NCBI GenBank assembly: GCA_026395055.1
Contig: JAPLZK010000004.1
Coordinates: forward strand, 273,891 to 337,890
From: Candidatus Uhrbacteria bacterium
Lineage (GTDB): Bacteria > Patescibacteriota > Patescibacteriia > UBA9934 > GWF2-40-263
Length of the DNA stretch: 64,000 bases
Reading direction: 5' to 3'
Positions 3,199 through 23,948 of the stretch are shown here, one piece after another; positions within the stretch are counted from its first letter, which is position 1, and the number at the start of each line of letters is the position of its first letter. The translations under genes were made by a program, and so were the position numbers. The notes below the pieces were generated by a model. The model had not been told where the DNA came from. It saw only the letters and a list, made by a program, of their open reading frames with translations, and did not search any database.

Positions 3199-3232
3199 CA
3201 CCCTTCGACAAGCTCGGGGTGGTTTTTTCTTT
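3199..3232 (+). terminator. Putative terminator hairpin (CCACCC...GGGGTGG plus T-run)
   Basis: Inverted repeat followed by TTTTTTCTTT after the PP2C gene stop. Confidence 0.45.
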
Positions 3233-3342
3233 GAAAAAGACGGGTTCTTGACGAATCCTTGCTTTTCCCTTATCCTAAGCACAAATCCAATCGCCCAAGA
3301 CAGCAGGTGCCCTAAAAGCATAAGTCCTGCCGAGGTGAATAA

Positions 3343-3377
3343 GACCCCTCCCAACCTCCCCTTATAAAGGGGAGGGG
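3343..3377. repeat. G/C-rich palindromic element, copy A (CCTCCCC ttataaa GGGGAGG), flanked by 15-nt direct repeats CATAAGTCCTG(C/G)CGA
   Basis: Perfect 7-bp stem with a 7-nt loop. Belongs to the family seen at 15831, 17747 and 23117. Lies in the rplJ leader region. Confidence 0.6.
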
Positions 3378-3461
3378 AATGCGGTCCATTCATAAGTCCT
3401 GGCGAAAAGCCCGGATTTTTTATTAAAGGTCGAAGAAACAAGTAACATACACGTCTCGATT

Positions 3462-3983
3462 ATGCCAAAAACCAGAAAACAGAAGGCAGAGATCAAGAGC
3501 GAACTTGCGGATAAATTTGGAAAAATGAAATCCGTTGTGTTTACCTCCGTCTCTGGTTTCACCATGAAAGACGCAGATGCGCTTCGTGCAAAAGGAAAAG
3601 CAGAAGGTGTTGATTTCTTGGTTACCAAGAAAACTATCCTTGTACGCGCCTTAGAAGAAAAAGGAATTACCTTGTCGAAAGATTTGGTTTCCGGAAGTCT
3701 TCTCACAGCCATCAGCTACACAGATGAAGTTGCTCCCGCTAAAATCATTGCAGACTTTTCAAAGGGTCGCGAAGGATTCAAAATGGTCGGAGGAATTTTA
3801 GAAGGATCGTTTGTGGATTCACGAGCGGTTATCATGCTTTCAACACTTCCTTCTAAGCAAGAATTGCTCGCGAAGTTGGTTGGTACATTGAATGCTCCGG
3901 TTTCAGGATTTGTAAACACTCTTGCCGCGAACGTTCGTGGTCTCGTTGTTACATTGAATGCCATCGCAGAACAAAAATCTTAA
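3462..3983 (+). CDS. rplJ: 50S ribosomal protein L10
   Basis: 173-aa protein with a typical L10 N-terminus (KQKAEIKSELADKF) and C-terminal L12-binding helix. Followed by rplL. Confidence 0.9.
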   Translation: MPKTRKQKAEIKSELADKFGKMKSVVFTSVSGFTMKDADALRAKGKAEGVDFLVTKKTILVRALEEKGITLSKDLVSGSLLTAISYTDEVAPAKIIADFSKGREGFKMVGGILEGSFVDSRAVIMLSTLPSKQELLAKLVGTLNAPVSGFVNTLAANVRGLVVTLNAIAEQKS

Positions 3984-4004
3984 TCTATCCTTATTACACA
4001 TCTT

Positions 4005-4406
4005 ATGGAAATGGAAAATGTAGAAGTTCCAGCTAAGTTCAAGACACTCGTTGAGTCTATTGAAACAATGTCTGTTCTCGATCTTGCAGAACTCGTAAAA
4101 CTTTTGGAAAAGAAATTTGGCGTAAGTGCCGCTGCTCCCGCTATGATGATGGCAGCAGGTGGTGCAGCAGCAGGAGCTCCAGCTGCAGAAGAGAAAACAT
4201 CTTTCGATGTTGAACTCACCGCGTGTGGAGACAACAAGATCGGCGTGATCAAGGTTGTACGTGAAATCACAGGTCTCGGACTTAAAGAAGCAAAAGACGT
4301 TGTAGACGGAGCACCAAAGAACGTTAAGGAAGGTGTTTCAAAAGACCAAGCAGAAGAAATCAAAAAGAAATTGGTTGAAGCAGGTGGAACAGCCGTCATT
4401 AAGTAA
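4005..4406 (+). CDS. rplL: 50S ribosomal protein L7/L12
   Basis: Ala/Gly-rich hinge after the N-terminal dimerisation domain, and a C-terminal [23 protein letters not shown] motif. Confidence 0.9.
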
Positions 4407-4410
4407 TGAC

Positions 4411-4445
4411 AAAAAACCCTCGATGAAATATCGAGGGTTTTTTTA
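4411..4445. terminator. Bidirectional rho-independent terminator (AAAAACCCTCGAT gaaat ATCGAGGGTTTTTTT)
   Basis: Perfect 11-bp stem with A-run and T-run on both sides, between convergent genes. Confidence 0.75.
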
Positions 4446-4450
4446 TTTCT

Positions 4451-4846
4451 TTATTTTTGTCTGTAGAGTTTCATGCCATCAATCATGATGGTGTCTTTGT
4501 CGACCTTCGAGATGTAGATGTCGTAGGTTTTTTTGAAGGGAATAGATGTTTTACGCATTTGGACAGACACGTTGTCTTCAAAGCGTTTTACGATTTCATA
4601 CGTTCCGTTGTCTTTGAAGGCAGATTCTGTCTTCATGTCATACGTTCCGTTTTTAAACGTATAGACAACAAACCATTTGTATCCATCTTTTGTCACGGAG
4701 TCTGTACGCCATGCTCCGGTAAACTCGTCTTTAGATTCTTGGACAAGAGGTGTATGTGTTTTTTGGATGAGAACAAATCCGCCCACACCAAGAATGACCG
4801 CCGCAAGAATAAGGAAACCGACCAGGGAGAGTTGTTTTTTGTTCAT
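4451..4846 (-). CDS. Hypothetical membrane-anchored protein (N-terminal TM), 131 aa
   Basis: ORF with an N-terminal hydrophobic helix; no recognisable family. Confidence 0.45.
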   Translation of the reverse strand: MNKKQLSLVGFLILAAVILGVGGFVLIQKTHTPLVQESKDEFTGAWRTDSVTKDGYKWFVVYTFKNGTYDMKTESAFKDNGTYEIVKRFEDNVSVQMRKTSIPFKKTYDIYISKVDKDTIMIDGMKLYRQK

Positions 4847-4852
4847 AGAAGA

Positions 4853-7063
4853 TTAACTTTTCAAATGTCCCGCCGTTATCGTATAAATATTTGCTCCGGA
4901 CAAAATATACACAGCTTGGGCTTTTTCATCAACAAGGAAGTCGGAAAGATCAGCAAATGCATCGGAAGTATATTGTGTCACGAATGCGCCCGTATCTTTT
5001 TTATAGACGATGAGTCGTTTCGTTTTTGGCTCGAGCGCGTAGAGGAATTTACTGTTTCCATCTGTCCAAATGCGAGTTATATCTGTCGCAGGTGGTTCAA
5101 TCGCACCAAGTTGCCATCCAACTTCTGCACCGTTTTGAAATCGTGCAACAAGTCCGGTGCCATGGAGAATGTAGAGAGAACCATCGATCGTGAGCGCATG
5201 TGGGCTTGCGAGTGCTTCTGTTTTTGAGGAGATCCAAGACGTTCCCGTTCCGTAGCCGGATCCTCCCTTACTGAACTTCAGAAGTTCTGCGTCATTCGTG
5301 TTTGCTGTTAAGAGATACATGCGATGTGCATAGGCAAGCAAGGAGACGGCGGATCCGTTTGATGGATTTGAGATAGGAACAGGAGAAATGGTTCCGGCTT
5401 TAACATCGATGTCAAAGAGCTGATTGGTTGAATTCAGGGCGAAGATATGACCATCTTCCTCAGATGCGTCAACAATTGGCGAAGAAGATATTTGTGAAGG
5501 GGAGAGCGCTTTGACTTGTTTGGTTACGGGATCAACTTGCCAGATCATTTGATTCGCATCGATCACGTACAGTTGAGAACCAGAACGAATGATACGCACC
5601 CCTTTTTGTTCTCCCGTTGCACTCACCTCGATCTTTGCCAGAAGAGCTGGGTTTGGAATCGTGACAACGTGACGTAGTTCATTCATGGCCGTGTCGACGT
5701 CCTTTGAGAGTTTCGAGGCTGTTTCTTTGTAAGCGGGTTTATCTGTTGGCAATTGCTGGATGAGTGTGGTTGCTTGTTGGTAAAGGGATCGTGCTTGATT
5801 TTCATCTTTATAAATCATGGCGCCACCTGCGCGATCAATAACATCTTGAATGGTGGAGACACGCGTTTCAAATTGTTTTTGCGCTTCTGAGGTGGAGTGA
5901 AAATGAGAAAGAAGCGTGAGTCCAATAATGAGGAGTACGACGAGTCCGATGAGCATTTGTGCAAAGCGTCTGGTGCGCACCGGCAACGATCGAACTTTTT
6001 GCATTTGAACGAGCCAAGCATTTTTCCACGCAATTTTACGTGTTGGAATGGATTGCACGAACGCAGTTCTGCGTTCTTTACTTGTAAGAGCCATGATGCC
6101 AAAACTTATTCCTTTGCATGTGCGTCGAACAGCCTTCCAGATGTTGTGACTCACCGATGTGAGAAGTTTGAGAAGGATCTTGAGGCGTGGTTCTCCTCTA
6201 CGGAGGTCTGTGAGAATACGAGAACGCTCCGTAAGTTTCTTATAAAAGAATGTAATGCGAGTTTTCAGAAATCCAATAAGATCTGGTTTTTGGTCTTCAA
6301 GGAGTTTCGTGGTTTCGTCCTGTCCGCGAACAAAGGAGTCGATGGAAACATCGGAAAGAGGTTTCGCGTACGATTCTGGAATGGAAGACGCGGAAGATTC
6401 TGCTTTGATGATGAGAAGTAAAAGTCCGTCATTTGCGGCAAAGTACTGTCTAATTTTTTCTGTTGCACTTTTGGGAGGGAGCGCGGTCAGAATAGAATTC
6501 AAATCATCTTGGGAGATGCTGTGTTGAATATCTTTTTGAGAAACGCAAAAGACATCACCGTCTTCTAAGTCGCCGTCCAAAACGACCGCGAATGGTTTTT
6601 CCCAGGTCGGGAGTGCTTGTTCTGTTTGAATTCCACGAAACAAATTGAAGACTTGATACCGTTGTGACGGTTTGCGATGCAAAAAAAGAGCGGACAGCTC
6701 ACCGGTTCCAGAAAGAAACATGCGATCTTCTGAGATAATTCCGACAGCCGCATGAAAATTTTGAATGGGAATATAAAATCTTCCGTCACGAACGGTTTGA
6801 GAAACGGTTTCATTCAATGCGCCCAAGAACTGTTCGAAACGATGTTGTGCATTTGCGTCTTTCCCAAACGAATTTGCAAGTCTGTGGACGTGATCACTCA
6901 GGAGTTGCAGTAAAACATCGTTGTCTGGATTTTTTTTGCTTAAATACGCAAGGACGAAGACATATCCACTTCTGCCCTCAAGGGGGAGAATAACCGAAAG
7001 CCCCTCCACGTGCTCATTTGGGGATTTAGGCTCATATTGTGCCGCTTTCAGATAGGGGCTCAT
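4853..7063 (-). CDS. Membrane protein: N-terminal cytoplasmic PP2C/SpoIIE-like domain, one TM, C-terminal extracytoplasmic beta-propeller-like repeats
   Basis: Start taken at MSPYLK (ATG at 7063). The N-terminal domain shows a PP2C-like motif order (AVGIIS...FLSGTGELSALFL...VVLDGDLEDGDVF). TM is LIGLVVLLIIGLTLL. The C-terminus has repeated LYVID / IFALN / LYILHG / FLYALE blade-like motifs. Confidence 0.55.
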   Translation of the reverse strand: MSPYLKAAQYEPKSPNEHVEGLSVILPLEGRSGYVFVLAYLSKKNPDNDVLLQLLSDHVHRLANSFGKDANAQHRFEQFLGALNETVSQTVRDGRFYIPIQNFHAAVGIISEDRMFLSGTGELSALFLHRKPSQRYQVFNLFRGIQTEQALPTWEKPFAVVLDGDLEDGDVFCVSQKDIQHSISQDDLNSILTALPPKSATEKIRQYFAANDGLLLLIIKAESSASSIPESYAKPLSDVSIDSFVRGQDETTKLLEDQKPDLIGFLKTRITFFYKKLTERSRILTDLRRGEPRLKILLKLLTSVSHNIWKAVRRTCKGISFGIMALTSKERRTAFVQSIPTRKIAWKNAWLVQMQKVRSLPVRTRRFAQMLIGLVVLLIIGLTLLSHFHSTSEAQKQFETRVSTIQDVIDRAGGAMIYKDENQARSLYQQATTLIQQLPTDKPAYKETASKLSKDVDTAMNELRHVVTIPNPALLAKIEVSATGEQKGVRIIRSGSQLYVIDANQMIWQVDPVTKQVKALSPSQISSSPIVDASEEDGHIFALNSTNQLFDIDVKAGTISPVPISNPSNGSAVSLLAYAHRMYLLTANTNDAELLKFSKGGSGYGTGTSWISSKTEALASPHALTIDGSLYILHGTGLVARFQNGAEVGWQLGAIEPPATDITRIWTDGNSKFLYALEPKTKRLIVYKKDTGAFVTQYTSDAFADLSDFLVDEKAQAVYILSGANIYTITAGHLKS

Positions 7064-7160
7064 AGCGAAGTTGCTCAAGATCAAGCGTTTGTGTACATTA
7101 TACCTGTATAAAAGGAGGGCGCAATGGAGACAACATGCAAAAGTTGTCTTGAATCTGATT

Positions 7161-7763
7161 ATGAACAAGCACACCTTCAATCTCGAACACATGTTTGGTT
7201 CAAAGACTCGAGCTCGTTTAATGAGCTTGTTTTTGCAACAACCAAAAGAATTATTTTTCGTGAGAGAACTGACGCGTCGTATTGGCGCTCAGCTCAACTC
7301 CGTTCGACGCGAATTAAAAAATTTAATCGACATGGGGCTCATTTTGGAAAAACAATCAGAGCACGCACGACTTTCTGGAACTCTCGCAGAAAAGAAAAAG
7401 TTTTACACCGTCAACACAGATTACATTCTGTATGAAGATCTGCGTTCTTTGTTTCAAAAGGTTTCTATTTTATTGAAACAAAATTTGGTTCAAGAGATTG
7501 ATCAAAAAGGATCCATTGCGTATTTTGCGTTTACCGGACGTTTCGTAGATGCAAAAGATATTTCTACAGACCTGTTGATTGTGGGAGATATCAAGCAAGA
7601 GCTTCTAGAAGAAGTGATCAAAAAGTTCGAGGCAGAAATTCCATACGAAATTAACTACACCCTCATGCCAAAAGATGAGTTTCGTGATCGCCGACAAGTT
7701 GCAGACAGATTCTTGTCCAGTATTTTGAATGCAGAGAAAGTTGTCATGATTGATCGCATTTAA
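7161..7763 (+). CDS. Winged-helix (ArsR/MarR-like) transcriptional regulator with an uncharacterised C-terminal domain
   Basis: N-terminal motif FGSKTRARLMSLFL...ELTRRIGAQLNSVRRELKNLIDMGLI. Start chosen at ATG 7161, so it does not overlap the divergent gene. Confidence 0.5.
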   Translation: MNKHTFNLEHMFGSKTRARLMSLFLQQPKELFFVRELTRRIGAQLNSVRRELKNLIDMGLILEKQSEHARLSGTLAEKKKFYTVNTDYILYEDLRSLFQKVSILLKQNLVQEIDQKGSIAYFAFTGRFVDAKDISTDLLIVGDIKQELLEEVIKKFEAEIPYEINYTLMPKDEFRDRRQVADRFLSSILNAEKVVMIDRI

Positions 7764-7765
7764 GT

Positions 7766-8143
7766 ATGGACCTGTTCATCTGCGCCCAAGATATTCAATT
7801 CATTACGTTTGGTCTCGTGAAAGATCGAACGTTGTTTTGTGAAAAGGCTTTTGAGGTTCCTCCAGAAAAGTATCTTTTCTCGCTCGACGTGTTTCTTTCT
7901 GAGCAACATGTGGCGCCTGTGGACGTGTCTCGCATCCTGATTGTGAATGGTCCGGGTTCTTTTACGGCGAGTCGTGTGAGTGTGGTGATGGCAAATTCAT
8001 TCGCGTTTGTGCAACAAATCCCCATGTGTTCTATAGAGAATCCTGAGCGAAGATCGCTTGCGGAACTGCTGCCCATTCTTGAAAGACGCCCAGATCAGGC
8101 ATTTGTTGTTCCAGCATATGACAGGCCACCGAATATCACCTAA
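7766..8143 (+). CDS. TsaB/YeaZ-like (inactive Kae1 homolog) N-terminal-domain protein, truncated length
   Basis: ILIVNGPGSFTASRVSVVMANSFA matches the TsaB GPGSFTG.R.G motif. At 125 aa it is about half the usual TsaB length. Confidence 0.5.
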   Translation: MDLFICAQDIQFITFGLVKDRTLFCEKAFEVPPEKYLFSLDVFLSEQHVAPVDVSRILIVNGPGSFTASRVSVVMANSFAFVQQIPMCSIENPERRSLAELLPILERRPDQAFVVPAYDRPPNIT

Positions 8144-8183
8144 AATAGAGAGAGCGCGTTTATAAATCACTCCTATTCGCCAT

Positions 8184-8864
8184 ATGTCATTTGATACAAA
8201 CCTTCTTCAGGTTCCGCTTCTTGAACTCTGGAATACAATGGTTTCGTTTTTACCTAATGTGATTGGTGCGGTGATCGTGTTTGTGATCGGTATTTTGATT
8301 GCGGTTGTTTTGTGCCAGGTTGTTGTGCGCATTGTTGCACTTTTGCGTATTGACGAACTTGCAGAGAAACTCGATATTAAAAAGCAATTTGAACGTATGG
8401 GAATTCGTTTGCATATTGGTTCCTTGCTTGGATGGATTGTAAAATGGTTTTTCATTATTGTGTCCCTTATTGCCGCAACAGATATTTTGGGATGGAAAGA
8501 AGTGACGGATTATTTAAAACAAGTGGTTCTCTTTGTTCCAAACGTCATCATTGCCGTCATCATTCTGCTTGCAGGAATTTTGCTTGGGAATTTTGTGCAG
8601 AATGTTGTCCGGTCTGCCGTTGAGGCGGCACAACTTGCTTCTTCACAATTTCTTTCTGCCCTTGCAAAGTGGGCAATCCTGATTTTCAGTTTTATGGCCG
8701 CTCTTGTGCAATTGCAAATTGCCCCAGATCTTATTCGAACACTTTTTACCGGTCTTGTGTTCATGCTCGCCCTTGCGGGTGGTCTTGCGTTTGGACTTGG
8801 TGGAAAAGAACACGCCTCTGAGTTTTTAACACGTCTTAAAAAAGAGATCTCCTCTGAAAAATAA
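8184..8864 (+). CDS. Integral membrane protein with repeated conserved-TM-helix motifs (MscS-associated type)
   Basis: Several TM segments with the repeated pattern LPNVIGAVIVFVIGILIA / VPNVIIAVIILLAGILLG. Confidence 0.5.
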   Translation: MSFDTNLLQVPLLELWNTMVSFLPNVIGAVIVFVIGILIAVVLCQVVVRIVALLRIDELAEKLDIKKQFERMGIRLHIGSLLGWIVKWFFIIVSLIAATDILGWKEVTDYLKQVVLFVPNVIIAVIILLAGILLGNFVQNVVRSAVEAAQLASSQFLSALAKWAILIFSFMAALVQLQIAPDLIRTLFTGLVFMLALAGGLAFGLGGKEHASEFLTRLKKEISSEK

Positions 8865-8865
8865 C

Positions 8866-10350
8866 ATGGAACGGTATCATTACGGACAATTGCGATTTTG
8901 GGAGATGCTCCCCGGCCTTGTGGTCTGGGGAACATTTATTTTGTCACTCACGCTTTCCTTTATTGAACCGCTTTGGGTGATTGTCTTTATTATCGTCTTT
9001 GATCTGCTTTGGTTGTATCGCATTATCTATTTCAATTTGTTTGTGGTGATTGCGTGGGCAACGTATCGCAAGACCATTAAAATCGATTGGAAACAAAAAC
9101 TTGTTGGGGTTTCCGATGCGGATTCAAAGATCCATCTCATTTTTCTTCCGACCTACAAAGAAGAATATGAAATTATTGAAACAACGCTTACATCGCTTCA
9201 ACACAATTCTTTTCCTTCCGATCGCATGATGATTGTGCTTGGTGGGGAAGAAGGAGATCGTGTGCACTTTGAGGGAGTTGCGGCGCGCGCACAAGAAAAA
9301 TTTGGATCCGTTTTTAAAAAGTTGATCATCACGCTACATCCAAAAGGATTGCCAAATGAAATGTCTGGCAAAGGATCAAACTTGAATTGGATGGGGCATC
9401 GTGTAGAAGAAGTGCTTCAGGAAGAATTTCCCGCGTTGAAAGATGAAGACATGATTGTTTCTGCCTTTGACGTTGATACCATTGCACACGAGCACTATTT
9501 TTCGTACCTGACGTATTTGTATTGCACGGTAAAAGATCCAACACACAGCTCCTATCAACCAATCGCTCTGTTCTCGAATAACATTTGGACCGCGTCTGCT
9601 CCTGTGCGTATTGGAGCGTTCGGAACCACCTTCTGGTTGTTTGGAGAACTCGCACGCTCAGAGCGTTTGTGGACATTCTCTTCACATTCCATGTCCTGGA
9701 AGATGTTGCGCGATGTTCGATTTTGGCAAAAAGATATTGTGAGTGAAGATTCGCGTATCTTTATGCAAGCCTTTTTACATTATCATGGGGATTATCGCGT
9801 GACCCCTATGTTCCTTCCTGTGTCTATGGATGCTGTGACCGGAAAGACCTATGTTGAATCCCTGGTCGCGCTTTATAAACAAATGCGACGTTGGGCATGG
9901 GGTGTGGAACACTTGCCGTATTTGATTGATGGATTCAGACGCGATCCTTCTATTCCACGATTCAAAAAATTTCAATATATTTTCAATCATTTGGAAGGAA
10001 TGTTCACGTGGGCAACAGCACCGATCATTATGTTCTTGCTAGGTTGGCTTCCGCTTTGGGTTGCAAAAGGACAAACGAACGCCATCATTCAAGCGGCACC
10101 ATTCACGCTTGAACAATTGATGCGACTCGCCATGATTGGAATCGTGCTTTCTGCGAGCATGTCGCTTACCTTGTTACCACGAAGACCAGGAACGGTTCGA
10201 CCTTACGCATGGATTATTATGCTTTTACAATGGGCATTGCTGCCTATCACCTTTATTGTCTTTGGATCCTTACCAGCGGTGGACGCGCAAACACGTCTCA
10301 TGATTGGAAAGTATTTAGGATTTGAAGTGACAAAAAAACAACGAAAATAA
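8866..10350 (+). CDS. Processive family-2 membrane glycosyltransferase (cellulose/chitin/hyaluronan-synthase-like)
   Basis: N-terminal TM helices, D,D-type motifs, an ED motif (VSEDSR) and a QxxRW motif (YKQMRRWAWG), then C-terminal TM helices. Confidence 0.65.
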   Translation: MERYHYGQLRFWEMLPGLVVWGTFILSLTLSFIEPLWVIVFIIVFDLLWLYRIIYFNLFVVIAWATYRKTIKIDWKQKLVGVSDADSKIHLIFLPTYKEEYEIIETTLTSLQHNSFPSDRMMIVLGGEEGDRVHFEGVAARAQEKFGSVFKKLIITLHPKGLPNEMSGKGSNLNWMGHRVEEVLQEEFPALKDEDMIVSAFDVDTIAHEHYFSYLTYLYCTVKDPTHSSYQPIALFSNNIWTASAPVRIGAFGTTFWLFGELARSERLWTFSSHSMSWKMLRDVRFWQKDIVSEDSRIFMQAFLHYHGDYRVTPMFLPVSMDAVTGKTYVESLVALYKQMRRWAWGVEHLPYLIDGFRRDPSIPRFKKFQYIFNHLEGMFTWATAPIIMFLLGWLPLWVAKGQTNAIIQAAPFTLEQLMRLAMIGIVLSASMSLTLLPRRPGTVRPYAWIIMLLQWALLPITFIVFGSLPAVDAQTRLMIGKYLGFEVTKKQRK

Positions 10351-10352
10351 GT

Positions 10353-11405: not shown

Positions 11406-11410
11406 TTTGT

Positions 11411-12223: not shown

Positions 12224-12227
12224 TGTC

Positions 12228-14273: not shown

Positions 14274-14287
14274 TAGATTGTTTCCGT

Positions 14288-15292: not shown

Positions 15293-15295
15293 AAT

Positions 15296-16510
15296 ATGGA
15301 GGTCAATTTGCTTAACAACTCTGCAAAATCGGTCGTCTATGCGATTGATGCCTGGTCCGCGAATCAAAAAAAGAAGACCGGTGTGGAGATGTATGCGTTT
15401 CAATTGATTCAGGCAATGAAAAAACACGCGCTCGCAGAAAACGAGCGTGTGGTTTTGTATTCGCCAACGAAGCTTGAGGGGGCGCTTGCAGAATTACCGA
15501 ACGGATGGGAAGAAAAGATTGTTGCATGGCCAACGAAATCAAGTTGGTTTCCTGTTGGGTGGATGCAAGCCCGCATGAGCTTCGAGCTGTTTCAACATCC
15601 ACCATCCGTTTTATTCGTTCCGTCCCAAGGACTTCCTCGACAATTTCCGGGAGTGTCTTATCCGATTCTCACAACAGTGCACGATCTTGGATTTTTGCGT
15701 GCGCCGAATTTATATGACTCCGCATCACGGAAACGTTTGTCGAAATTGACGAAGCGCTCCGTAAAAAATGCGTCTCACCTCATAACCGTGTCCGAATTCT
15801 CGAAGTCCGAGATTGTTTCGCTTTACTCGCAGTCCCTCCCCCCTGCCAAGGGGGGAGTTGGAGGGGGGTCTCGGATCTCGACCACATATCTTGCGGCAGA
15901 TACATCCATCTACAAACGGTTATCTCGAGAAGAGATTGAACCTGTTTTGCAACGTCATCGCATCGGGAAACATTTTTTTCTGTATGTGGGGAGACTCGAT
16001 CAAAAGAAAAATGTGGAAACCCTTATTCGTGCGTTTGACCAGTTCAAACTTGATCGCGGTGTTGGAGATCCGTACGAGCTTGTCCTTGTTGGTGAGCCTG
16101 GATTTGGTTTTGCAAGCATGAAGAATTGGATCGACCACTCAACGGCGAAAGATCAAATTCACACGCTCGGATATCTTGAAGACGCAGACGTGGCAGCACT
16201 CATGAACGCCGCAACCGCATTTGTTTTTCCATCGTGGTACGAAGGATTTGGAATTCCCAATGTAGAAGCGATGTCTTCGGGAACTCCACTTCTTGTTTCT
16301 GATATTCCTGTTCATCGAGAAATCTTAGGTGATGCTGCAATGTTTGTTACGCCTTCTGAACCTGAGCCTTGGGTGCATGCCATGAAACAACTTGCCGAAG
16401 ATGCGTTGCTTCGTGAGCAGTTGATCACCAAAGGGTCTATTCGATCGAATCTGTTTGACTGGAATAAAACCGCGATGCAGACATGGGAAGTTTTGCGCAG
16501 TCTGATATAA
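15296..16510 (+). CDS. Glycosyltransferase family 4 (GT-B, GT1-like)
   Basis: FLYVGRLDQKKN...EGFGIPNVEAMSSGTPLLVSDIP...E(X7)E signature. Contains an in-frame G/C palindromic insertion (see repeat 15831..15873). Confidence 0.75.
   Translation: MEVNLLNNSAKSVVYAIDAWSANQKKKTGVEMYAFQLIQAMKKHALAENERVVLYSPTKLEGALAELPNGWEEKIVAWPTKSSWFPVGWMQARMSFELFQHPPSVLFVPSQGLPRQFPGVSYPILTTVHDLGFLRAPNLYDSASRKRLSKLTKRSVKNASHLITVSEFSKSEIVSLYSQSLPPAKGGVGGGSRISTTYLAADTSIYKRLSREEIEPVLQRHRIGKHFFLYVGRLDQKKNVETLIRAFDQFKLDRGVGDPYELVLVGEPGFGFASMKNWIDHSTAKDQIHTLGYLEDADVAALMNAATAFVFPSWYEGFGIPNVEAMSSGTPLLVSDIPVHREILGDAAMFVTPSEPEPWVHAMKQLAEDALLREQLITKGSIRSNLFDWNKTAMQTWEVLRSLI
15831..15873. repeat. G/C-rich palindromic element, copy B (CTCCCCCC tgccaa GGGGGGAG plus a second GGAGGGGGG), in-frame inside the GT4 CDS (encodes LPPAKGGVGGG)
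   Basis: Perfect 8-bp stem. Same family as 3343, 17747 and 23117. Confidence 0.6.
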
Positions 16511-16519
16511 TCGAACAAT

Positions 16520-17290: not shown

Positions 17291-17292
17291 AA

Positions 17293-17320
17293 AAAGAGAT
17301 CATCAAGGTTTGATGATCGC
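17293..17320 (-). terminator. Hairpin GATCATCA-agg/ttt-TGATGATC with the T-run on the minus strand
   Basis: Perfect 8-bp stem. The poly-T follows the hairpin only when read on the minus strand, which suggests a minus-strand unit ends here. Confidence 0.4.
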
Positions 17321-17385
17321 GTAGGACAGGAAGAGGCTGCTCACCAAAAGAGGGAGCGGATGAGTGAGACATTCAAAGAGCTGTC

Positions 17386-17760
17386 GGGGAGTGAGATAAG
17401 GAGTTCGACGGGCGTGTCCAGGGAAAAGAAGTCAGCTACCAGTGCCGCAGTGCATGTGGGGCCGTAAGGATATTGGGTCCGCAAGGAGCGGGTTCCTTGC
17501 GTCGGCATACATGCGTAGGGCACACTTTGTAGCTTCGTTCAGTTCGCGCTCAATCATGGTCATGACACGGTCTCCAGGAGGGGAGCAGTCATGGACGGAT
17601 TTTGGATACGGGTTACGGAACTCATACTGACCTCATTCGACAAGACCCTGTGTCTCATCTATCGCCTCTTCCTCTCGTTTGGAAGAGAAGATAAATCTAT
17701 CATGTTTTCTTGAAAATGTCAATGTGGGGCGGCAGACCCCATGTGACCACCCCCTAACCC
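17386..17760 (+). ncRNA. tmRNA (ssrA)-like 5' segment; 3' tRNA-like half not identified
   Basis: GGGGAGUGAGAUAAGGAGUUCGACGGGCGUG closely matches the conserved tmRNA 5' end GGGGnuGAuucuGGAUUCGACGGG. Hairpins follow downstream. No canonical tag ORF or GGUUCGAnUCC T-arm was found. Confidence 0.2.
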
Positions 17761-17782
17761 CCTCCTTGTGAAGGAGGGGGGA
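17747..17782. repeat. G/C-rich palindromic element, copy C (GACCACCCCCTAACCCCCTCCTT gtg AAGGAGGGGGG)
   Basis: Perfect 10-bp stem. Nearly identical to copy D at 23117, including the GACCACCCCC prefix. Confidence 0.65.
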
Positions 17783-17794
17783 AATAGAAACAAA

Positions 17795-17820
17795 AAATAC
17801 CCTTATGGGTATTTTTTCTC
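17795..17820. terminator. Symmetric terminator hairpin AAAAAATACCC tta TGGGTATTTTTT
   Basis: Perfect stem with an A-run on one side and a T-run on the other, at the left edge of the high-GC island. Confidence 0.6.
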
Positions 17821-17973
17821 GTTTTGAGGGAGAGATGGTCTTGCGACCTATTCACATCACGAGAGAACATGAGGTGGATAGGTCGAGAGATTGTTTTTAG
17901 GTACGATGATTCTAGACTATTGCCTGTCATTGCGAGAAGTTCGACGACGCGGCAATCTTTTTGTCCAAGAATT

Positions 17974-18040
17974 CAGATGTCACAAGTTGAAACTTATGAT
18001 CTCTGAAAGCTGCGCGACGGGACTGTGGGGAAAGAGGGAT
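17974..18040. repeat. Island repeat family 1, copy 1 (..GATCTCTGAAAGCTGCGCGACGGGACTGTGGGGAAAGAGGGA)
   Basis: About 65 nt, aligns with copies at 20097 and 21715 (AGATGCCGCGAGTnTTnACTCACGAnCTCT...CGACGG). Confidence 0.6.
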
Positions 18041-19354
18041 AGCTAATCCGTTTCCACACAGCCCGCCACGCGAGGTTCAACAAGCTTATCGCAGACCGCG
18101 CCAAATTGGCGTTGCATAGTGCGTCCTAAGGATCCGGTATCCTCGGGATGTCGTTGATTCAGCAAGAGGGTCCCTTTCGAGGTTACCCACAGAATTTTTG
18201 AGCGCGTGTCGCTCTAGACGATGTTGTTGACCATCGTCATCTCTGTTTTCAGTAGTGCTCCGAAATTGCTCTAGGAGCGCGCATACAAACGATTTTCACT
18301 TCTCGTTCGTGTACGTTCAGCTACGATAACCGGTCTTCGTACTGCGCGAAGACGGATCTCCTTGGATGTCTTTCGACATGCTTACACCAACAGCTGAACG
18401 TTGGTGCTGCTCAGGGAAAAGAAGGGGTACATGGATCTCCTTGTTCCAGGCGGTGTTGCGTGCCCATGATCCCAATCGACGGGGTGAGCAGCGGGTTGTG
18501 GCGAAAGCGCATGAGTGACCGATGCCCGGACCCGCGGCTGCCTTGGTGGCTGCGGCGGTAACAGTGGGCGATCGCGTCGCGAGTTTCCGTACAAGAATGC
18601 GCATCTTGCAGGCCAACACCGTGTTGCATAAGACTTTGGGTTTGGGGCGTGTAACCTATCTATCAAATGCCCCGTACAAGGTTCTTGTTGGAAGAACCAG
18701 GAATCCCTTCACTTCACGCCGACCGCCTTATGCGGAAACCTTCAATCGGCGTTGCCTATTCACAATTTCAGATGCATGGATCCTCCTTGATCCTTCGTCA
18801 TGCCCGCTTCCAGTCGATGGAGAGCGAACGGGTTGCGCCAAAAGCACACTCAAATGCGACCGGTGCCAACATGGCCGACCGAGCCGCGGACCGCCAGGCG
18901 TGTGCCAAACCTGGGGTAAACATGTCCGACCATTGGCCGAACCGAGGTTACAACGCGCGGGTGCGTTGCAAGCTCGGAAAGCCGGACGATGTTTCGTGGA
19001 GAGACCACTAACATCGTCCAAGTTTTCCAATTCGCTAGACTTGAGATCTTCACCGGCTAATGGAGAGCCAGGGTCTCTTTTGCTTCATGCTTCGATCGCC
19101 TAATCATCGAGCATTGCTTTCCTGACGGATGTCGCTTATCTCACGGGTGACTCCTTAAGGGGTCGTTGTGGGTTGGGGCGAGAGGCCTAGTTGCCGAAGA
19201 GGCTCGCGACGATGCCGAAGAGGCAAACGGCGCCAAACAACTTCCAGCACCAGGACGCGAGAAACGGGTTACCAGCGTGGCGCGGATCGATTCCGGCCTC
19301 GATGCATTCTTCACGGTTCATGATCATCCTCCGGATCGTCGCGCTGCGAGCGAT

Positions 19355-19729
19355 CTAGTTGAAGTTTTGGATCCGCGCTCGTTCTTCGAGCATCGGAAGC
19401 ATGTCGATCACTTCGACGGACGTCAGGTGGATCATCCACTCGACGGTGTCGAGGCAAAGTTGCCGGCCGAGCTCGAACGCCCGGATCAGGTTAAGGACGC
19501 CGTTGCGGCCGATGAACGGTCCGCGGTCGCCGATGACCCAAGCAGGCGTTGCACCGAAGTGCGTCACAAGCTCGGTTTCGGAGACGCGATCGATTTCGCG
19601 CACAGCGAGTTCGATTTCGGCTTCGCACTTGAACAGGTTCAGGTCGAAGCCGGCTTCGATGAGCGCACGACGCGCACCACGGAATTCGACTCGGCCAGAA
19701 AGGGAAACGGGTTGATGCAAATGTTGCAT
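19355..19729 (-). CDS. Hypothetical protein (island gene W), 124 aa
   Basis: Normal amino-acid composition; the plus-strand partner is D/E/R-rich shadow. A family-2 repeat with a UUCG-tetraloop hairpin lies about 100 nt upstream. Confidence 0.5.
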   Translation of the reverse strand: MQHLHQPVSLSGRVEFRGARRALIEAGFDLNLFKCEAEIELAVREIDRVSETELVTHFGATPAWVIGDRGPFIGRNGVLNLIRAFELGRQLCLDTVEWMIHLTSVEVIDMLPMLEERARIQNFN

Positions 19730-19824
19730 CGGACTCCTTCATGCTCTTCGATTTCTCGAAGGCTGTTTGAACTGTTGAGAAACCAGGTACCAATTAGATC
19801 CAGAAAACTGGAGGCAAGGGATCC

Positions 19825-19915
19825 AGTGACCTCCCGAAGGCGGTGTAGACCATGAATATCTTGCGTATGAAATGAGTAAGCTTTCGCCTAGTCAAGCCAT
19901 TTGATATTCGCTAGA
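19825..19915. repeat. Island repeat family 2, copy a (AGTGACCtCCCGAAGGCGGTGTAGACCATGAATATCtTGCGTATGaAaTGAGT...CCATTTGATA)
   Basis: About 90 nt, aligns with 22381..22470. On the minus strand it carries a TTGACT/-10-like promoter and a conserved GCC-UUCG-GGC tetraloop hairpin. Confidence 0.6.
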
Positions 19916-20096
19916 TGTCCTTTCGGGATTATCTAGTTGCTCTCTCCTCCATTTCTCTAGATCGAAACTGTTTTGAAGTTGTAAAGTCATGGAATAAAAG
20001 TGGTTTTCTGTTTGATGATTGTTTTAAGGAACAATCAAACAAAACCTTCCTTCACTCCATAACTTCACGACTCCATCGTGTTGTATTTTTTCTCTG

Positions 20097-20160
20097 CAAG
20101 ATGCCGCGAGTGTTGACTCACGAACTCTTGGGAGACGACCGATGAATGAAAAGCGAGGTA
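20097..20160. repeat. Island repeat family 1, copy 2
   Basis: ATGCCGCGAGTGTTGACTCACGAACTCTTGGGAGACGACCG, preceded by an AT-rich ttccttcact stretch like copy 3. Confidence 0.6.
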
Positions 20161-20245
20161 GGGCTAATCATTCATCGGTCGTAAGGTCTTTGTTTATGAA
20201 GTCGTTAGACTCGACTTTGGAGCGGAAGCTTCAGGACGATTGCGA

Positions 20246-21451
20246 CTAGCGCATGTCGTCGATCAACTCCTCGCTCGCGCGGCGGCTCTGGTCGCCACGG
20301 CTGCCGCGTTCGCGACGGGCACCGGTCCAGGCATCCTGGTTTTTCCGGTACTCGTCGAGACCGGCCAGTTCGTCCGCCTTGGACATCTGCTGGCCGCGGT
20401 TGCTGCCGACCTGCTGCTTGGCCAGACGGTCGCGCTTCATTTCCGCCGACTTGCGCTGCGCCGCCTCTTCTGCCTCGGCCACCTTGATGCACGCCACCAA
20501 CTCCTCGAACGAGAGGGAGTTGTCGACGGTCATGCCCCACTCCTGCTGCTTGCGCGGGCCGCAGGTGAAGCGGGTCGCGGCGGCGTCGGGGGTGGGCGTG
20601 ATGCCGTTGCGGGTATTGTCCTTGATGACGGACAGCGCCGGGAAACGGGCGTCGCAGGCCTTGAAGACCGTGTTGTAGTACGAGCACCTCCGGAACAGGG
20701 TCCCGTTGTACTCGCCGACCTCACCGTACTTCAAGCCCTTGCAGAAGCTGGCCCAATTGGCCTTCTGCGCTTCGGCTTCGGCGTGCTTGGCTTGGCCGGC
20801 ACGGATGGTGCTGAGGCCGTTCGCCAGGCTGTTTCGCTCATCCTTCCACTGCGTGAACAGCGGGAGGTAGGCGTTGTCGATCAAGTTCTGCTCCGTCAGC
20901 AGATCCTGGCCGAGCTTGGCCTTGAGCACGTGCAGCGGGGCGATGCGCAACTGCTGGGCGGTGGCCTTGCGACCGCTACCCGCACAGGTGTACATCTGCT
21001 CCGGCTCCGCCTTGACCACGACCTTGACCACGGGGGCCTCGGGCGCGGCTTCGGCGACGACGGTATCGGCCACGACTTCGACTTCGGCCACGGGGGCTTC
21101 GGTCTCGGCCACGACTTCCACCGTCGGCTTCAGCGACGCGAGCTGCACTTCGTTCAGGCCGGCGAGGATTTCGCTCGGGCTGAACTGCTGCAACGCGGTG
21201 ACGCTGGCGCCGTTCTCGATCAGATCGGCGACCTTCGCCATCGTATCGAGACCCAGCAACTTGCCGTCCGGGCACAGGTACTCGGCCGTGATGCCCGCTT
21301 CGACCAACTTGGCCGCAGCGTCCACTGCCGGCTTGCCGCCGTTCGCAACCACGTTCTTCCGCTTCGCATCGATCACCTGATTCTTGGTCAGGCCGTCGAG
21401 GACGAGGTTGGCGTGGAGGATGGTGACGACGTTCGTGTAGAACTGGCTCAT
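20246..21451 (-). CDS. Hypothetical protein (island gene Z), 401 aa, with an internal Ala/Glu/Val/Pro-rich linker and a charged C-terminus
   Basis: Balanced composition, whereas the overlapping plus-strand 410-aa ORF is Ala/Leu/Arg/Gly-rich antisense shadow. No recognisable family. Confidence 0.55.
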   Translation of the reverse strand: MSQFYTNVVTILHANLVLDGLTKNQVIDAKRKNVVANGGKPAVDAAAKLVEAGITAEYLCPDGKLLGLDTMAKVADLIENGASVTALQQFSPSEILAGLNEVQLASLKPTVEVVAETEAPVAEVEVVADTVVAEAAPEAPVVKVVVKAEPEQMYTCAGSGRKATAQQLRIAPLHVLKAKLGQDLLTEQNLIDNAYLPLFTQWKDERNSLANGLSTIRAGQAKHAEAEAQKANWASFCKGLKYGEVGEYNGTLFRRCSYYNTVFKACDARFPALSVIKDNTRNGITPTPDAAATRFTCGPRKQQEWGMTVDNSLSFEELVACIKVAEAEEAAQRKSAEMKRDRLAKQQVGSNRGQQMSKADELAGLDEYRKNQDAWTGARRERGSRGDQSRRASEELIDDMR

Positions 21452-21714
21452 GGAAAACTCCTGATTGCGTGAGTCATACGTGATGCTCGACGCTCTTGAT
21501 TGCTAGGACACCTGCTTATAACAGCAGGATCTGCGCTGCCGGGATCCACATGGACCCGATCAGTTTCTGTAGCGGACAGTTCCGCTCCATAAATCCGATC
21601 GTGTCGGGGAAGGAAAGTCAAAGAGTCGAAGAGTCTCGGAGGGGGAACTATTTTTTTAAAATAGAAACTTCCTTCACTTTTTGACTCTTTAACTTTTTGA
21701 CTTGTTTTTGAATT

Positions 21715-21780
21715 CAGATGCCGCGAGTTTTCACTCACGATCTCTGAAAGCTAGGCGACGGGCTGTGTTGAAAGGGAGTG
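21715..21780. repeat. Island repeat family 1, copy 3
   Basis: CAGATGCCGCGAGTTTTCACTCACGATCTCTGAAAGCTAGGCGACGGGCTGTGTTGAAAGGGAGTG. Confidence 0.6.
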
Positions 21781-21965
21781 CCTTCCTTCACAGCCGCGTC
21801 GCCAGATCTCGAGAAGAAGACTTGTGCCACTCAATGCTCGAGACATTGAGTCCACTGTATGTAATCCGCACCCGACCGCCTTACGTCAGATGTTTCCAGG
21901 TACAAACTTGCATTGTTCTAACCATTCCTTTGCTCTGTAAACCTGAGCGAGGTTGAAATGATCGG

Positions 21966-22100
21966 CTAGTTGCCGTTCATGGCGCGTTCACGATCGCGGA
22001 TCCGTTTGGCGAGGGCCAGCAGGTTGCGGGTCGAGTAGCGCCGGGGGTTGATGCAGCGGGCTTCCAACGTGTGGATTGCCGCGAGGATGTTTGCAGACAT
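21966..22100 (-). CDS. Small basic protein (island gene Y), 44 aa: MSANILAAIHTLEARCINPRRYSTRNLLALAKRIRDRERAMNGN
   Basis: ATG preceded by AGGAG at the correct spacing. Lies in the high-GC island and is below the ORF-track size cutoff. Confidence 0.35.
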   Translation of the reverse strand: MSANILAAIHTLEARCINPRRYSTRNLLALAKRIRDRERAMNGN

Positions 22101-22132
22101 GGAACTCCTGTCGGAACTTGTTGAAGTGGGGA

Positions 22133-22285
22133 CTACTTGTGCACGAGCATCGGGATGACGATCGAGCTGACGCCGAGGAGCAGAAGCACCAACGGGTTGG
22201 TGACGACGCTGACGCCGAACTCGACGATGTCTTTGGCCGAGGTGCTGCGGACGCTGAACTTGATGTTCGAGAGGACGGTATTCAC
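22133..22285 (-). CDS. Small single-TM protein (island gene X), 50 aa: VNTVLSNIKFSVRSTSAKDIVEFGVSVVTNPLVLLLLGVSSIVIPMLVHK (GTG start)
   Basis: CAGGAG SD 5 nt upstream of GTG. Amphipathic N-terminus, hydrophobic core and basic C-terminus, resembling inovirus major coat proteins. A family-2 repeat lies about 90 nt upstream. Confidence 0.4.
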   Translation of the reverse strand: MNTVLSNIKFSVRSTSAKDIVEFGVSVVTNPLVLLLLGVSSIVIPMLVHK

Positions 22286-22380
22286 AGGGGCTCCTGATGC
22301 AAGCACTATCTAGTAGGCTCGCGCTGTAGTTTTCCCTTTGCCAATTCGTTCGGCGCAGGAATCCGGGAGTAGGTCGACTC

Positions 22381-22470
22381 AGTGACCGCCCGAAGGCAGG
22401 TGTGAATCATGAGTATCGTGCGTATGGAGTGAGTGAGGGTGAACCCAGTCAAACCATTTGATACTCACCG
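22381..22470. repeat. Island repeat family 2, copy b
   Basis: AGTGACCGCCCGAAGGCAGGTGTGAATCATGAGTATCGTGCGTATGGAGTGAGT...CCATTTGATA, aligning with 19825..19915. Confidence 0.6.
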
Positions 22471-22821
22471 CTTTCATTCACCGAAGTGTTTTGAAAGACG
22501 GTTTGCTCTCTCCCCCCGAATTTCTGCGTCGAGGTATATAAAAAGATCCATTGCTGCACGTATCCCTGCCTGCCGGCAGGCAAGCAAGCTTTGAGAGATA
22601 CGTAAAACAATAGATCTTCTTTGCTATTACCTAATGGGACCGATAGCTCGGCTCTCTCCCCGTTTGAGTTGTAAGGTTTGAAGTCTTTCTTCTTGCCTCA
22701 CTGCATCTTCGTGAACATACTATACCACTTTTTGTCAGTTTTGTCAAGACTCCAACCTAACAAACTAAGCTAATTATGCTAAATTTAGCTAAATCAATAT
22801 GTCAGGAAAGTCTGGAATAAA

Positions 22822-22920
22822 AAGAGGGGTAAGGGATTAGGGGCTAGGGACAAGAGGTGAAGGGCGAGGGATTAGGGATTAGTTAAGCAAATTGGCTACT
22901 AGTCCCTAATCCCTCGCCCC
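22822..22920. repeat. G-tract array (GGGGTAAGGGATTAGGGGCTAGGG...GGGCGAGGGATTAGGGATTAG) followed by an ~18-bp inverted repeat (AGGGCGAGGGATTAGGGA ... TCCCTAATCCCTCGCCCCT)
   Basis: Seven or more G3-4 tracts containing TTAGGG-like units form a potential G-quadruplex. The inverted arms flank a 24-nt loop. Located 35 nt upstream of the holB start. Confidence 0.6.
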
Positions 22921-22952
22921 TCGTCCCTCCTCATGCTATAATTCCAATACTT

Positions 22953-23948
22953 ATGCCCTCATCTCCCTTTCACAACCTTATTGGGCATGAACGCGTTCAG
23001 GATGTTTTGGGTCGCATGATTACCCACGATCGTTTACCACATGCATTCCTGTTTGTGGGGCCGCATCACCTCGGAAAAACGTATGTGGCAAAGCAGTTAA
23101 TCCGTTTCTTAAGCGACCACCCCCAGCCCCTCCTTGTAAAGGAGGGGGGCTCGAGTGTTTCAATGGACGTTATTGAACTTGGGTGTCTCACAGATGAAAA
23201 GACGGGAAAGAAAAAAACACAGATTTCTGTGGAACAAGTTCGAGAAGTTTGTGAGCGACTTGCGATGAGTGCCATGAATGGTGGTTGGAAGATTGCCTTC
23301 ATTAAAGATGCAAATGTCCTTTCGAACGCAGCCGCGAATGCCTTGTTGAAAACACTTGAAGAGCCAAAAGGAAAAACATTGTTCATTCTGCGCGCACCAT
23401 CTGTTGAATCGGTTCTTCCAACGGTCGCATCGCGTTGTCAGGTCATGCGCTTTCATCCGGTTTCAAGAAGCACACTCGCGACAGCTCTTGTAAAAAAGGG
23501 TCATGCAAAACCAGACGCAGAACTCGCGGCGGCAATTTCGCTCGGTCGTCCTGGTCGAGCGTTGCGATATCTCACAAAGAGCGAAGACAGATCGCAAACA
23601 GATATTGGTGTTGAACAAGCAATCGAACTGTTCTCTTCTACACACGCAAAACAAATTCGTTTGACCTCGACGCTGCTTCCAAAAGAAGATGTGAACAAGC
23701 GTACGGCGGCTGACCAAACGGTTCGGTTGTGGCAGAGAGTCTTACGAGATGATCTGTTGCGACAGGTTGGATGCGAAGAATTGGTTGTCTATAAGGGGCA
23801 AGGGGTTCGGGGCAAGGGGTTAGAGGGAAAACATCCGAATCTGGTTCAGCTGATTCAAACATTGAAAAAAACAGAAGAGGGAAGAAGCGCGATTGCGCAT
23901 AATACCAATCCACAATTAACGTTAGAGCACATTTTATTTTCTCTATGA
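22953..23948 (+). CDS. holB: DNA polymerase III delta-prime subunit (HolB), with two in-frame low-complexity insertions
   Basis: FLFVGPHHLGKTYVAKQL Walker-A-like motif and the ...PTVASRCQVMRF SRC motif. Insertions are at 23117..23150 (palindromic element) and 23790..23830 (G-tract repeat encoding KGQGVRGKGLEGK). Confidence 0.7.
   Translation: MPSSPFHNLIGHERVQDVLGRMITHDRLPHAFLFVGPHHLGKTYVAKQLIRFLSDHPQPLLVKEGGSSVSMDVIELGCLTDEKTGKKKTQISVEQVREVCERLAMSAMNGGWKIAFIKDANVLSNAAANALLKTLEEPKGKTLFILRAPSVESVLPTVASRCQVMRFHPVSRSTLATALVKKGHAKPDAELAAAISLGRPGRALRYLTKSEDRSQTDIGVEQAIELFSSTHAKQIRLTSTLLPKEDVNKRTAADQTVRLWQRVLRDDLLRQVGCEELVVYKGQGVRGKGLEGKHPNLVQLIQTLKKTEEGRSAIAHNTNPQLTLEHILFSL
23117..23150. repeat. 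G/C-rich palindromic element, copy D (GACCACCCCCAGCCCCTCCTT gta AAGGAGGGGGG), in-frame inside holB (encodes DHPQPLLVKEGGS)
   Basis: Perfect 9-bp stem, near-identical to intergenic copy C at 17747. Confidence 0.65.

Follow-up and report, generated by a model that had tools for sequence, protein, structure and literature searches.

The window analyzed here is a stretch of 64,000 nucleotides (nt) from a Candidatus Uhrbacteria bacterium (assembly GCA_026395055.1, contig JAPLZK010000004.1, positions 273,891 to 337,890 of the forward strand), and the subject of this analysis is a short, G/C-rich hairpin element of which it holds four copies. Per Pfam, the genes concerned encode ribosomal protein L10 (rplJ, 3462-3983), a GT4 glycosyltransferase (15296-16510), and the delta' subunit of DNA polymerase III (holB, 22953-23948). 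Copy 1 (3343-3377, plus strand, forward, GACCCCTCCC-AA-CCTCCCCTT-ata-AAGGGGAGG-GG) is situated in the rplJ leader, in its variable region; copy 2 (15836-15870, minus strand, i.e., in reverse orientation on the plus strand, CTCCCCCCT-gcca-AGGGGGGAG-tt-GGAGGGGGGTC) lies in frame inside the GT4 gene; copy 3 (17745-17781, plus strand, forward, GACCACCCCC-taa-CCCCCTCCTT-gtg-AAGGAGGGGG-G) is intergenic; and copy 4 (23115-23149, plus strand, forward, GACCACCCCC-ag-CCCCTCCTT-gta-AAGGAGGGG-GG) lies in frame inside holB. A scan of the full 64 kb for perfect hairpins with a pyrimidine arm, a loop, and a purine arm, both arms being G/C-rich, retrieved exactly these four, which an earlier note on this DNA, made from the sequence alone, had already placed correctly. 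The 21-mer pattern of the element matched twice in the window, against 0.00-0.01 matches expected from shuffled sequence. Copies 3 and 4, which lie 5.4 kb apart, are near-identical over 35-37 nt and have 34 of 36 bases in common, including the non-palindromic head GACCACCCCC; the near-identity of these two copies and of their 5' extensions, also pointed out in the earlier note, thus holds over the entire element. When folded as single-stranded DNA with a tool that considers Watson-Crick pairs only, the stems reach -9.7 kcal/mol (copy 1, with a perfect stem of 9 bp) to -11.5 kcal/mol (copy 3, z -2.9). No convincing decayed copies were found in the window, where a relaxed scan allowing two stem mismatches added five weak matches, compared to a mean of ~1.9 in Markov shuffles.

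The element is longer than its hairpin. On one side of the hairpin lies a block of 8-11 nt, C-rich on one strand and G-rich on the other, that terminates in GACC/GGTC, and the arrangement of GACC, C-block, spacer, and hairpin is common to all four copies. The copy in the GT4 gene is the same element inverted, i.e., the hairpin is followed by TT and then by GGAGGGGGGTC. Rather than being complementary to the arm next to it, the side block mirrors that arm. To examine this symmetry, we used every pyrimidine/purine hairpin in all DNA fetched for this work, ~356 hairpins with 712 informative orientations. An exact 7-nt mirror of the arm core was present at a distance of at most 18 nt in 174 of the 712 orientations, against a mean of 92 (maximum 108) with permuted flanks, and a direct copy of the arm core was present in 11, against a permuted mean of 50. 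Among 258 hairpins with CCCCTCC/GGAGGGG arms, the block is one-sided in ~75%, and its middle base on the G-rich strand is T in 77 cases, A in 112, and C or G in 10. Mirror symmetry is what an intrastrand triple helix requires, and we know of no replication error that would yield it. The alternation of T and A in the middle of the block agrees with a purine-motif triplex, in which T*A-T and A*A-T triads occur, and since both block variants fit, we prefer the purine motif on the G-rich strand. The pyrimidine motif (C+*G-C) on the C-rich strand was the one we first considered and is less favored, as the A variant, CCACCCC, would mismatch. Such a triplex may form in cells. The loops are often GNRA-like, the purine arm is identical to a strong Shine-Dalgarno sequence, and the arms, being pure pyrimidine or purine, have a stop codon in just one of the six frames. 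The earlier note described the hairpin and overlooked the mirror block, yet it is the block that places the family with the BoxC/PIT/TMECO repeats of Escherichia coli (PMC4666352).

Copy 4 begins exactly at codon 55 of holB and encodes residues D55-G66 without a stop codon (the peptide spanning the insert reads DHPQPLLVKEGG). The residues D55-V62, with the KEGG that follows, are missing from the HolB orthologs P0003 (88% identical) and P0005 (84%), in which there is nothing at the site, a stretch that follows the P-loop helix and precedes the next strand. A forward copy with a different loop occupies the same site in the ortholog P0004, and P0002, P0006/7/9, and P0012 have reverse copies there (hairpin-CAT-GGGAGGGGTGAC, also in decayed form). 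Empty, forward, and reverse states are interleaved in a neighbor-joining tree of HolB, so either gains and losses have both occurred or the alleles have recombined. The empty allele reads TCG AAG GAG GCC and the window allele AGC [GAC CAC CCC CAG CCC CTC CTT GTA] AAG GAG GGG; the AAGGAGG in the empty allele suggests that the purine arm may partly pre-exist at the target. In an AlphaFold2 model of HolB with a mean pLDDT of 83, residues 59-68 score below 50 and lie between a helix (42-55) and a strand (72-76), and in a sequence alignment the insert site corresponds to the zinc-module region of the E. coli delta' subunit. Two contigs of separate origin encode this exact HolB protein, which is 100% identical to a record under the name Candidatus Uhrbacteria, and holB is presumed to be essential.

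Copy 2 likewise is in frame and free of stop codons, and encodes L181-G191 (LPPAKGGVGGG) of the GT4 glycosyltransferase. The insertion amounts to 30 nt, or 10 codons (LPPAKGGVGG), and is missing from the orthologs in the relatives L120, L121, and L123. It sits between the Pfam matches to Glyco_transf_4 (29-177) and Glycos_transf_1 (224-380). At a second position of the protein, GT4 of L121 and L123 carries a copy that differs from this one. The earlier note had proposed in-frame insertions in both of these genes, and the proposal was borne out, with inserts of 8-10 codons. An alignment of orthologs, which the note had suggested, showed the extra residues to be lineage-specific in HolB (relative to P0003 and P0005) and in GT4 (relative to all three orthologs): the orthologs do without the residues, rather than carrying them without the palindrome. 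The inserts would be tolerated passengers rather than adaptations, if they are neutral as we assume.

Syntenic loci of relatives were fetched by means of HolB and L10 orthologs. Close syntenic Uhrbacteria relatives have either nothing or something else at each of the four window sites, and comparison with them revealed a target-site duplication at none of these sites. Hairpins of the element number 20 (0.1 per kb) across 193 kb of Uhrbacteria-like DNA, and 13 of the 20 lie in long open reading frames (ORFs). The earlier note had asked whether copies always preserve the reading frame, and all 13 do. Among the host genes are those for peptidyl-tRNA hydrolase (Pth), a methylthiotransferase of the MiaB type, a class-V aminotransferase that has several copies, two further GT4 enzymes, and membrane proteins. 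By a hand count, roughly 5 of the copies in coding sequence are forward and 7 reverse, and the occurrence of both orientations relative to the gene points to an element acting at the level of DNA rather than to an RNA signal. An extra copy, CCCTCCCCT-caggc-AGGGGAGGG preceded by CACCCCACCCCAA, is found in relatives near the start of a TsaD-like gene (L207:8317-8339 and L208:8352-8374); the hairpin scan of the window found no such hairpin in its TsaD region. A longer aminoacyl-tRNA synthetase in L121 was also considered as a product of insertion and rejected, the protein being simply divergent.

The leader in which copy 1 lies (3276-3430, plus strand) matches the Rfam L10 leader family, RF00557, with 42.2 bits (gathering score 44) and an E value of 1.1e-5. 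Its variable region is oversized, with an insert of 71 nt versus 52 in the RF00557 model, and where the window has copy 1, seven relatives have an unrelated native hairpin, ACGAGTGTCGAGTTTCGACATGTTT. The 15-nt direct repeats at 3319-3333 and 3391-3405 (CATAAGTCCTG[C/G]CGA), which the earlier note saw as flanking the element, are real but are no insertion footprint: both halves are present in all seven relatives without the element, and the repeat is native to the L10 leader. At the gathering threshold, tRNAs were the only Rfam families found, and permissive scans of two sites returned the L10 leader alone. Upstream, after a PP2C gene, the window has a terminator at 3199-3225 (GCCACCC-TTCGACAAGCTCG-GGGTGG-T6) that is entirely different in relatives (GCCGATTTCGCAAGAAGTCGG-T6) and is another small replaced hairpin.

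Copy 3 lies between the -35 box of a candidate non-coding RNA on the minus strand and a bidirectional intrinsic terminator (17792-17817) that borders the insertion site and is kept in all four relatives. Directly 5' of copy 3, a small hairpin, GGGGCGGCAGACCCC (17726-17740, plus strand), was inserted together with it; this block is specific to the window and missing from the relative L119. At the copy 3 site, L119 has no insert, L121 has an unrelated palindrome of ~130 nt, and L123 has another insert, of 28 nt. The spacer is a hot spot at which elements of more than one kind insert. The long palindrome of L121, AGGAACGTTGTAGATACGGATTACAGATG...CATCTGTAATCCGTATCTCAAGCGTTCC, is located at approximately L121:5372-5500. 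As to the neighboring RNA, the candidate is ~390 nt long (17298-17690, minus strand), is conserved in four Uhrbacteria genomes, and matches no Rfam family at E<=1, whichever strand is scanned. It has a promoter with a conserved extended -10 (TTGACA-17-TGATAGATT, 17722 to 17694) and a terminator on the minus strand from 17318 to 17298. The structure predicted by RNAalifold comprises 107 pairs, of which 12 show compensatory changes, and its G-U pairs fit the minus strand only.

The matches listed for the exact 21-mer cover more than 118 stretches from other genomes, compared to ~0.6 that we estimate to occur by chance. Identical 21- to 36-mers occur in other genomes, and the GACC/ACC-block architecture recurs in the 21-mer matches. 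The earlier note held that its proposal would fail if no further copies existed; there are many, in relatives and in other phyla. The G+C content of the hosts ranges from 31% to 70%, and those with labels are assigned to Nitrospirota, anammox Planctomycetota, Ignavibacteria, Bacteroidota, Armatimonadota, Deltaproteobacteria, and several groups of the candidate phyla radiation (CPR); phyla were not counted from labels alone. In these other genomes, 21% of the copies span long ORFs, compared to 62% of random positions, with the CPR loci being the exception. No match to the 21-mer was found in viral contigs, so carriage by phages is unsupported. One metagenome-assembled genome labelled "uncultured Gammaproteobacteria" (L212, CAYHWG010000001.1; also L009, L065, and L094) encodes an L10 that is 81% identical to that of the window in the same gene neighborhood, and is evidently an Uhrbacteria relative; CAYHDY01 (L042, L054, and L068) looks likewise to be a mislabelled Uhrbacteria relative. 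Tandem arrays were seen in five loci (L052:221-806, from Ca. Aalborgicola, L044, L079, L024, and L105), e.g., five units with a period of 141-142 nt, and they combine a CCCCTCCTTGTAAAGGAGGGG hairpin with a CTCCCCCTGCCAAGGGGG hairpin that resembles window copy 2.

When the ORFs in the 118 loci listed for the 21-mer were clustered, the largest cluster (10 loci) consisted of a protein of ~125 aa with the domain DUF559 (PF04480, E ~1e-30), which we take to be a Vsr-like PD-(D/E)xK nuclease. The element lies within ~100 nt of the DUF559 gene in 8 of the 10 loci, and the typical layout is hairpin-N-GGGG(A/T)GGT, the DUF559 gene, and ACC(T/A)CCCC-N-hairpin. The association also emerges from the protein side, in a sample of 80 metagenomic DUF559 genes that were chosen without reference to the element. 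A hairpin is present within 150 nt of 69 of these genes, and hairpins number 5.97 per kb near the gene versus 0.39 per kb further off. The mirror block faces the gene in 38 of 57 upstream copies (7 more have blocks on both sides) and in 37 of 51 downstream copies (2 more), and the stop codon of the DUF559 gene often falls within the 3' copy. In E. coli K-12, a degenerate pyrimidine/purine hairpin copy lies over the stop codon of the DUF559 gene ycjD. A duplicated fragment of the ycjD 3' end (GAGACGGTGCTGGAGAATATTC...CTGAACCG) and then a BoxC/TMECO repeat follow between ycjD and fabI (L214:2706-2920). This repeat, a canonical one, lies 168 nt downstream of ycjD, and the chance of such adjacency is ~0.002, an estimate based on 23 copies in 4.6 Mb. 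The bracketed layout thus holds in other genomes and partly at ycjD, and the window has no such unit. PDB entry 3hrl was matched by the DUF559 profile at E 3.5e-27, and a weak match, at E 0.0045, was to PDB 3r3p, the homing endonuclease I-Bth0305I. The latter similarity is remote: I-Bth0305I is found within a group I intron and possesses additional domains for binding DNA (cited in PMC9403480 and PMC3424549), whereas the DUF559 genes are free-standing, encode ~120 aa, and are flanked by hairpins.

We read the four copies as solo, selfish repeats of ~35 nt that act at the level of DNA and belong to the class of intrastrand triplex motifs, rich in G/C, known in E. coli as BoxC, PIT, or TMECO, and we give this reading a probability of about 0.72. 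It draws on the architecture of the element, its family of copies, their lineage-specific presence, the preserved frame, the location in protein loops, and the spread over many lineages, as described above. In each copy, a C/T arm, a short loop, and a complementary G/A arm are followed, after a spacer of 2-5 nt, by a third block, which is the mirror of the arm and has GGTC at its end. The G-rich strand could then fold into a hairpin with the third block laid back onto it as a purine-motif triplex, and the duplex DNA would be a site prone to hairpin or cruciform formation. Copies appear, disappear, and give way to one another at spots that are permissive or prone to structure, and no target-site duplication accompanies this; presumably they are copied from other copies through break repair, template switching, or gene conversion. 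An insertion with a length that is a multiple of three would be read through as a Pro/Leu/Ser ... Gly/Lys/Glu/Arg loop, owing to the pure pyrimidine and purine arms with their stop codon in one of six frames. In this small, dense genome, the places where copies persist are disordered surface loops of proteins (HolB and GT4), a hairpin of the L10 leader that can be exchanged, and a spacer. Several points weigh against this reading. Neither a copying event nor an enzyme has been demonstrated for the source genome, and the window contains only solo copies, with no DUF559 (by tblastn), RAYT, or IS200/IS605 gene found in it. Membership in the same class rests on architecture and not on demonstrated common descent, the neutrality of the protein inserts is an assumption, and some taxon labels from other phyla are wrong, such that the breadth of the distribution is somewhat overstated. 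Lastly, the TMECO triplex went undetected in duplex DNA and by in vivo footprinting (PMC4666352), and a triplex may never form in cells.

If the copies are not selfish, they could be regulatory RNA or DNA hairpins and useful protein linkers that were locally selected and recruited site by site, e.g., as an attenuator stem, an element upstream of a promoter, or a sequestered Shine-Dalgarno-like AAGGAGG. Copy 1 indeed stands in place of the native L10-leader hairpin, where a stem is probably needed, copy 3 adjoins the -35 box of a conserved non-coding RNA promoter, and the GNRA-like loops and the Shine-Dalgarno-like purine arm would suit such roles. Nevertheless, the same sequence recurs in unrelated contexts and in both orientations to transcription, close relatives function with the corresponding sites empty, copies in other phyla are depleted from ORFs as noted above, and PIT/TMECO repeats showed neither promoter nor terminator activity in E. 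coli (cited in PMC4666352). We therefore consider local selection an unlikely explanation. Far less probable still is an independent origin of each hairpin, with no family involved, through templated mutagenesis of quasi-palindromes or slippage in Pro/Gly tracts. The AAGGAGG of the empty HolB site, equal to the purine arm, would allow for partial local templating, but copies 3 and 4 agree in 34 of 36 bases including their heads, long identical matches recur in other genomes, and the mirror block co-varies with the arm. Independent origin is already contradicted by this spread and this covariation.

The association with DUF559 suggests an extension of the selfish-repeat reading rather than a replacement for it: the 35-nt copies could be solo ends of an autonomous unit of ~0.5 kb, in which inverted hairpin-plus-mirror units bracket a DUF559 gene. 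The nuclease would recognize or nick the folded ends and thereby copy both the gene and solo ends, much as RAYT presumably does for REPs or as a homing endonuclease would. The size of the DUF559 cluster among the 21-mer loci, the hairpins near 69 of 80 metagenomic genes with their blocks facing the gene and a stop codon in the 3' copy, the position of ycjD next to a BoxC/TMECO repeat, and the profile matches to 3hrl and I-Bth0305I all speak for this extension. However, this is evidence of association, and repeats may just pile up around a dispensable gene. By tblastn, ~130 kb of relatives' loci contain no DUF559 gene, as is the case for the window, and an Uhrbacteria name is absent from the 120 best relatives of a DUF559 protein from Saccharibacteria. 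E. coli has 23 TMECO copies against the one DUF559 locus examined, and the authors who described TMECO found no link to mobile elements or gene function (PMC4666352). We regard the extension as possible, though less likely than not. A broader claim is slightly more doubtful, namely that BoxC/PIT/TMECO-type repeats in general are the non-autonomous ends of a widespread selfish DUF559 element that also settles in essential CPR proteins. In that case, the nuclease would spread the 35-nt ends across phyla, and in CPR bacteria, scarce intergenic space together with weak selection would leave them in protein loops.

If the selfish-repeat reading is correct, it would extend triplex-motif repeats, so far intergenic curiosities of E. 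coli and cyanobacteria, to CPR bacteria, where they are written into essential proteins as in-frame loops, and it would make them an independent second case of a behavior so far held to be peculiar to Rickettsia. It would also identify one concrete origin of lineage-specific insertions in proteins and of local variation in minimal genomes, and annotators would be warned that a Pro/Gly-rich stretch of 8-12 residues inserted in a CPR protein can be repeat DNA. Through the association with DUF559, BoxC/PIT/TMECO-type repeats gain their first testable enzyme candidate, and a large protein family gains a possible role; the repeats have been unexplained since 1992, and the DUF559 reading, if true, would account for them. 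Literature searches with the element's sequence string, with DUF559, and for insertions in CPR proteins returned nothing relevant, and no description for CPR/Patescibacteria was found, in agreement with the earlier note's impression that such elements are uncharacterized in CPR-like bacteria. Residence in frame within proteins, undescribed for this kind of repeat, appears to be new, as does the bracketing of DUF559 genes outside the window.

The earlier note likened the elements to Rickettsia palindromic elements (RPEs) and to families resembling miniature inverted-repeat transposable elements (MITEs) or repetitive extragenic palindromic (REP) sequences. Of these comparisons, the RPE-like behavior stands, i.e., a family with presence/absence variation and tolerated in-frame insertions, whereas membership in any of the three groups does not. 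RPEs, reportedly treated by Ogata and colleagues in 2000 and by Claverie and Ogata in 2003, are Rickettsia-specific elements of 100-150 bp that encode an amphipathic helical hairpin and are also found in RNA genes and spacers. They resemble the present elements in being palindromic, in lying in frame in protein genes of a small, reduced genome, and in adding tolerated surface segments to proteins. By description, the present elements are set apart by their length of 35-37 nt, by a disordered, Pro/Gly-rich loop, by the mirror block, and by their presence in many phyla. A classical MITE was ruled out by the lack of target-site duplication at the four sites, the direct repeat at rplJ pre-existing in relatives. 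The small dispersed repeats (SDRs) of cyanobacteria are said to have been described by Elhai and colleagues in 2008 as repeats of a few tens of bases inside conserved genes and inside other repeats. In a comparison by description only, they share the size, the location inside genes, and the absence of a known transposase with the present elements, and differ in sequence and in that a hairpin with a mirror block is undescribed for SDRs.

REP sequences and REPINs (PMC3116915) are closer in layout, as they combine a palindrome of 20-40 nt with a conserved non-palindromic head, occur as solo copies and as inverted doublets, lack target-site duplications, and can bracket a single small enzyme gene with inverted copies. 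Unlike them, the present family has a GACC rather than a GTAG head, is not confined to extragenic space, and brackets a DUF559 PD-(D/E)xK nuclease gene rather than one for a Y1 transposase. No RAYT partner was seen, the recurrent neighbor gene being DUF559, although no genome-wide RAYT search was made; similarly, no Y1 TnpA/TnpB partner of the IS200/IS605 type was found among the recurrent ORF clusters or the eight window ORFs scanned with Pfam (most ORFs were unscanned).

The best match is the BoxC/PIT/TMECO class, reportedly the subject of earlier work by Bergler in 1992 and by Hoyne and Maher in 2000. TMECO, with 23 copies in E. coli K-12, is a 37-nt motif of the form 5'-CCCTCNCCC-N3-6-GGGNGAGGG-N3-GGGNGAGGG-3', i.e., a 9-nt C stem, a loop of 3-6 nt, a 9-nt G stem, a loop of 3 nt (often TTA), and another 9-nt G stem (Holder et al. 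2015, PMC4666352). In that genome it is always intergenic, occurs in either orientation and at times in inverted pairs, and its loci vary among strains more than control regions do; the isolated G-rich strand, as an oligonucleotide, forms a triplex by circular dichroism and nuclear magnetic resonance (PMC4666352). The TMECO regular expression, which matches in E. coli (L214) and in the loci L003 and L008, has no match in the window, and the stems differ (CCCTCNCCC in TMECO versus CCCCTCCTT or CCTCCCCTT in the window). Also unlike TMECO, copies 2 and 4, i.e., two of four in the window, lie inside genes (GT4 and holB), as do 13 of 20 copies in relatives, and the conserved GACC/GGTC end and the DUF559 association are unreported for TMECO. 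In contrast, the succession of C stem, complementary G stem, and mirrored G block with short loops is present in all four window copies, copy 3 has the TTA second loop of TMECO type A, and all four sites differ among syntenic relatives, in line with the locus variability of the class. Both groups are ~35-37 nt long, with a loop of 3-6 nt between the stems and one of ~3 nt before the mirrored block, and both are multi-copy, occur in either orientation at variable loci, and have neither target-site duplications nor a known function. On the strength of this shared architecture, we place the window copies in the same structural class as BoxC/PIT/TMECO, as a different sequence subfamily.

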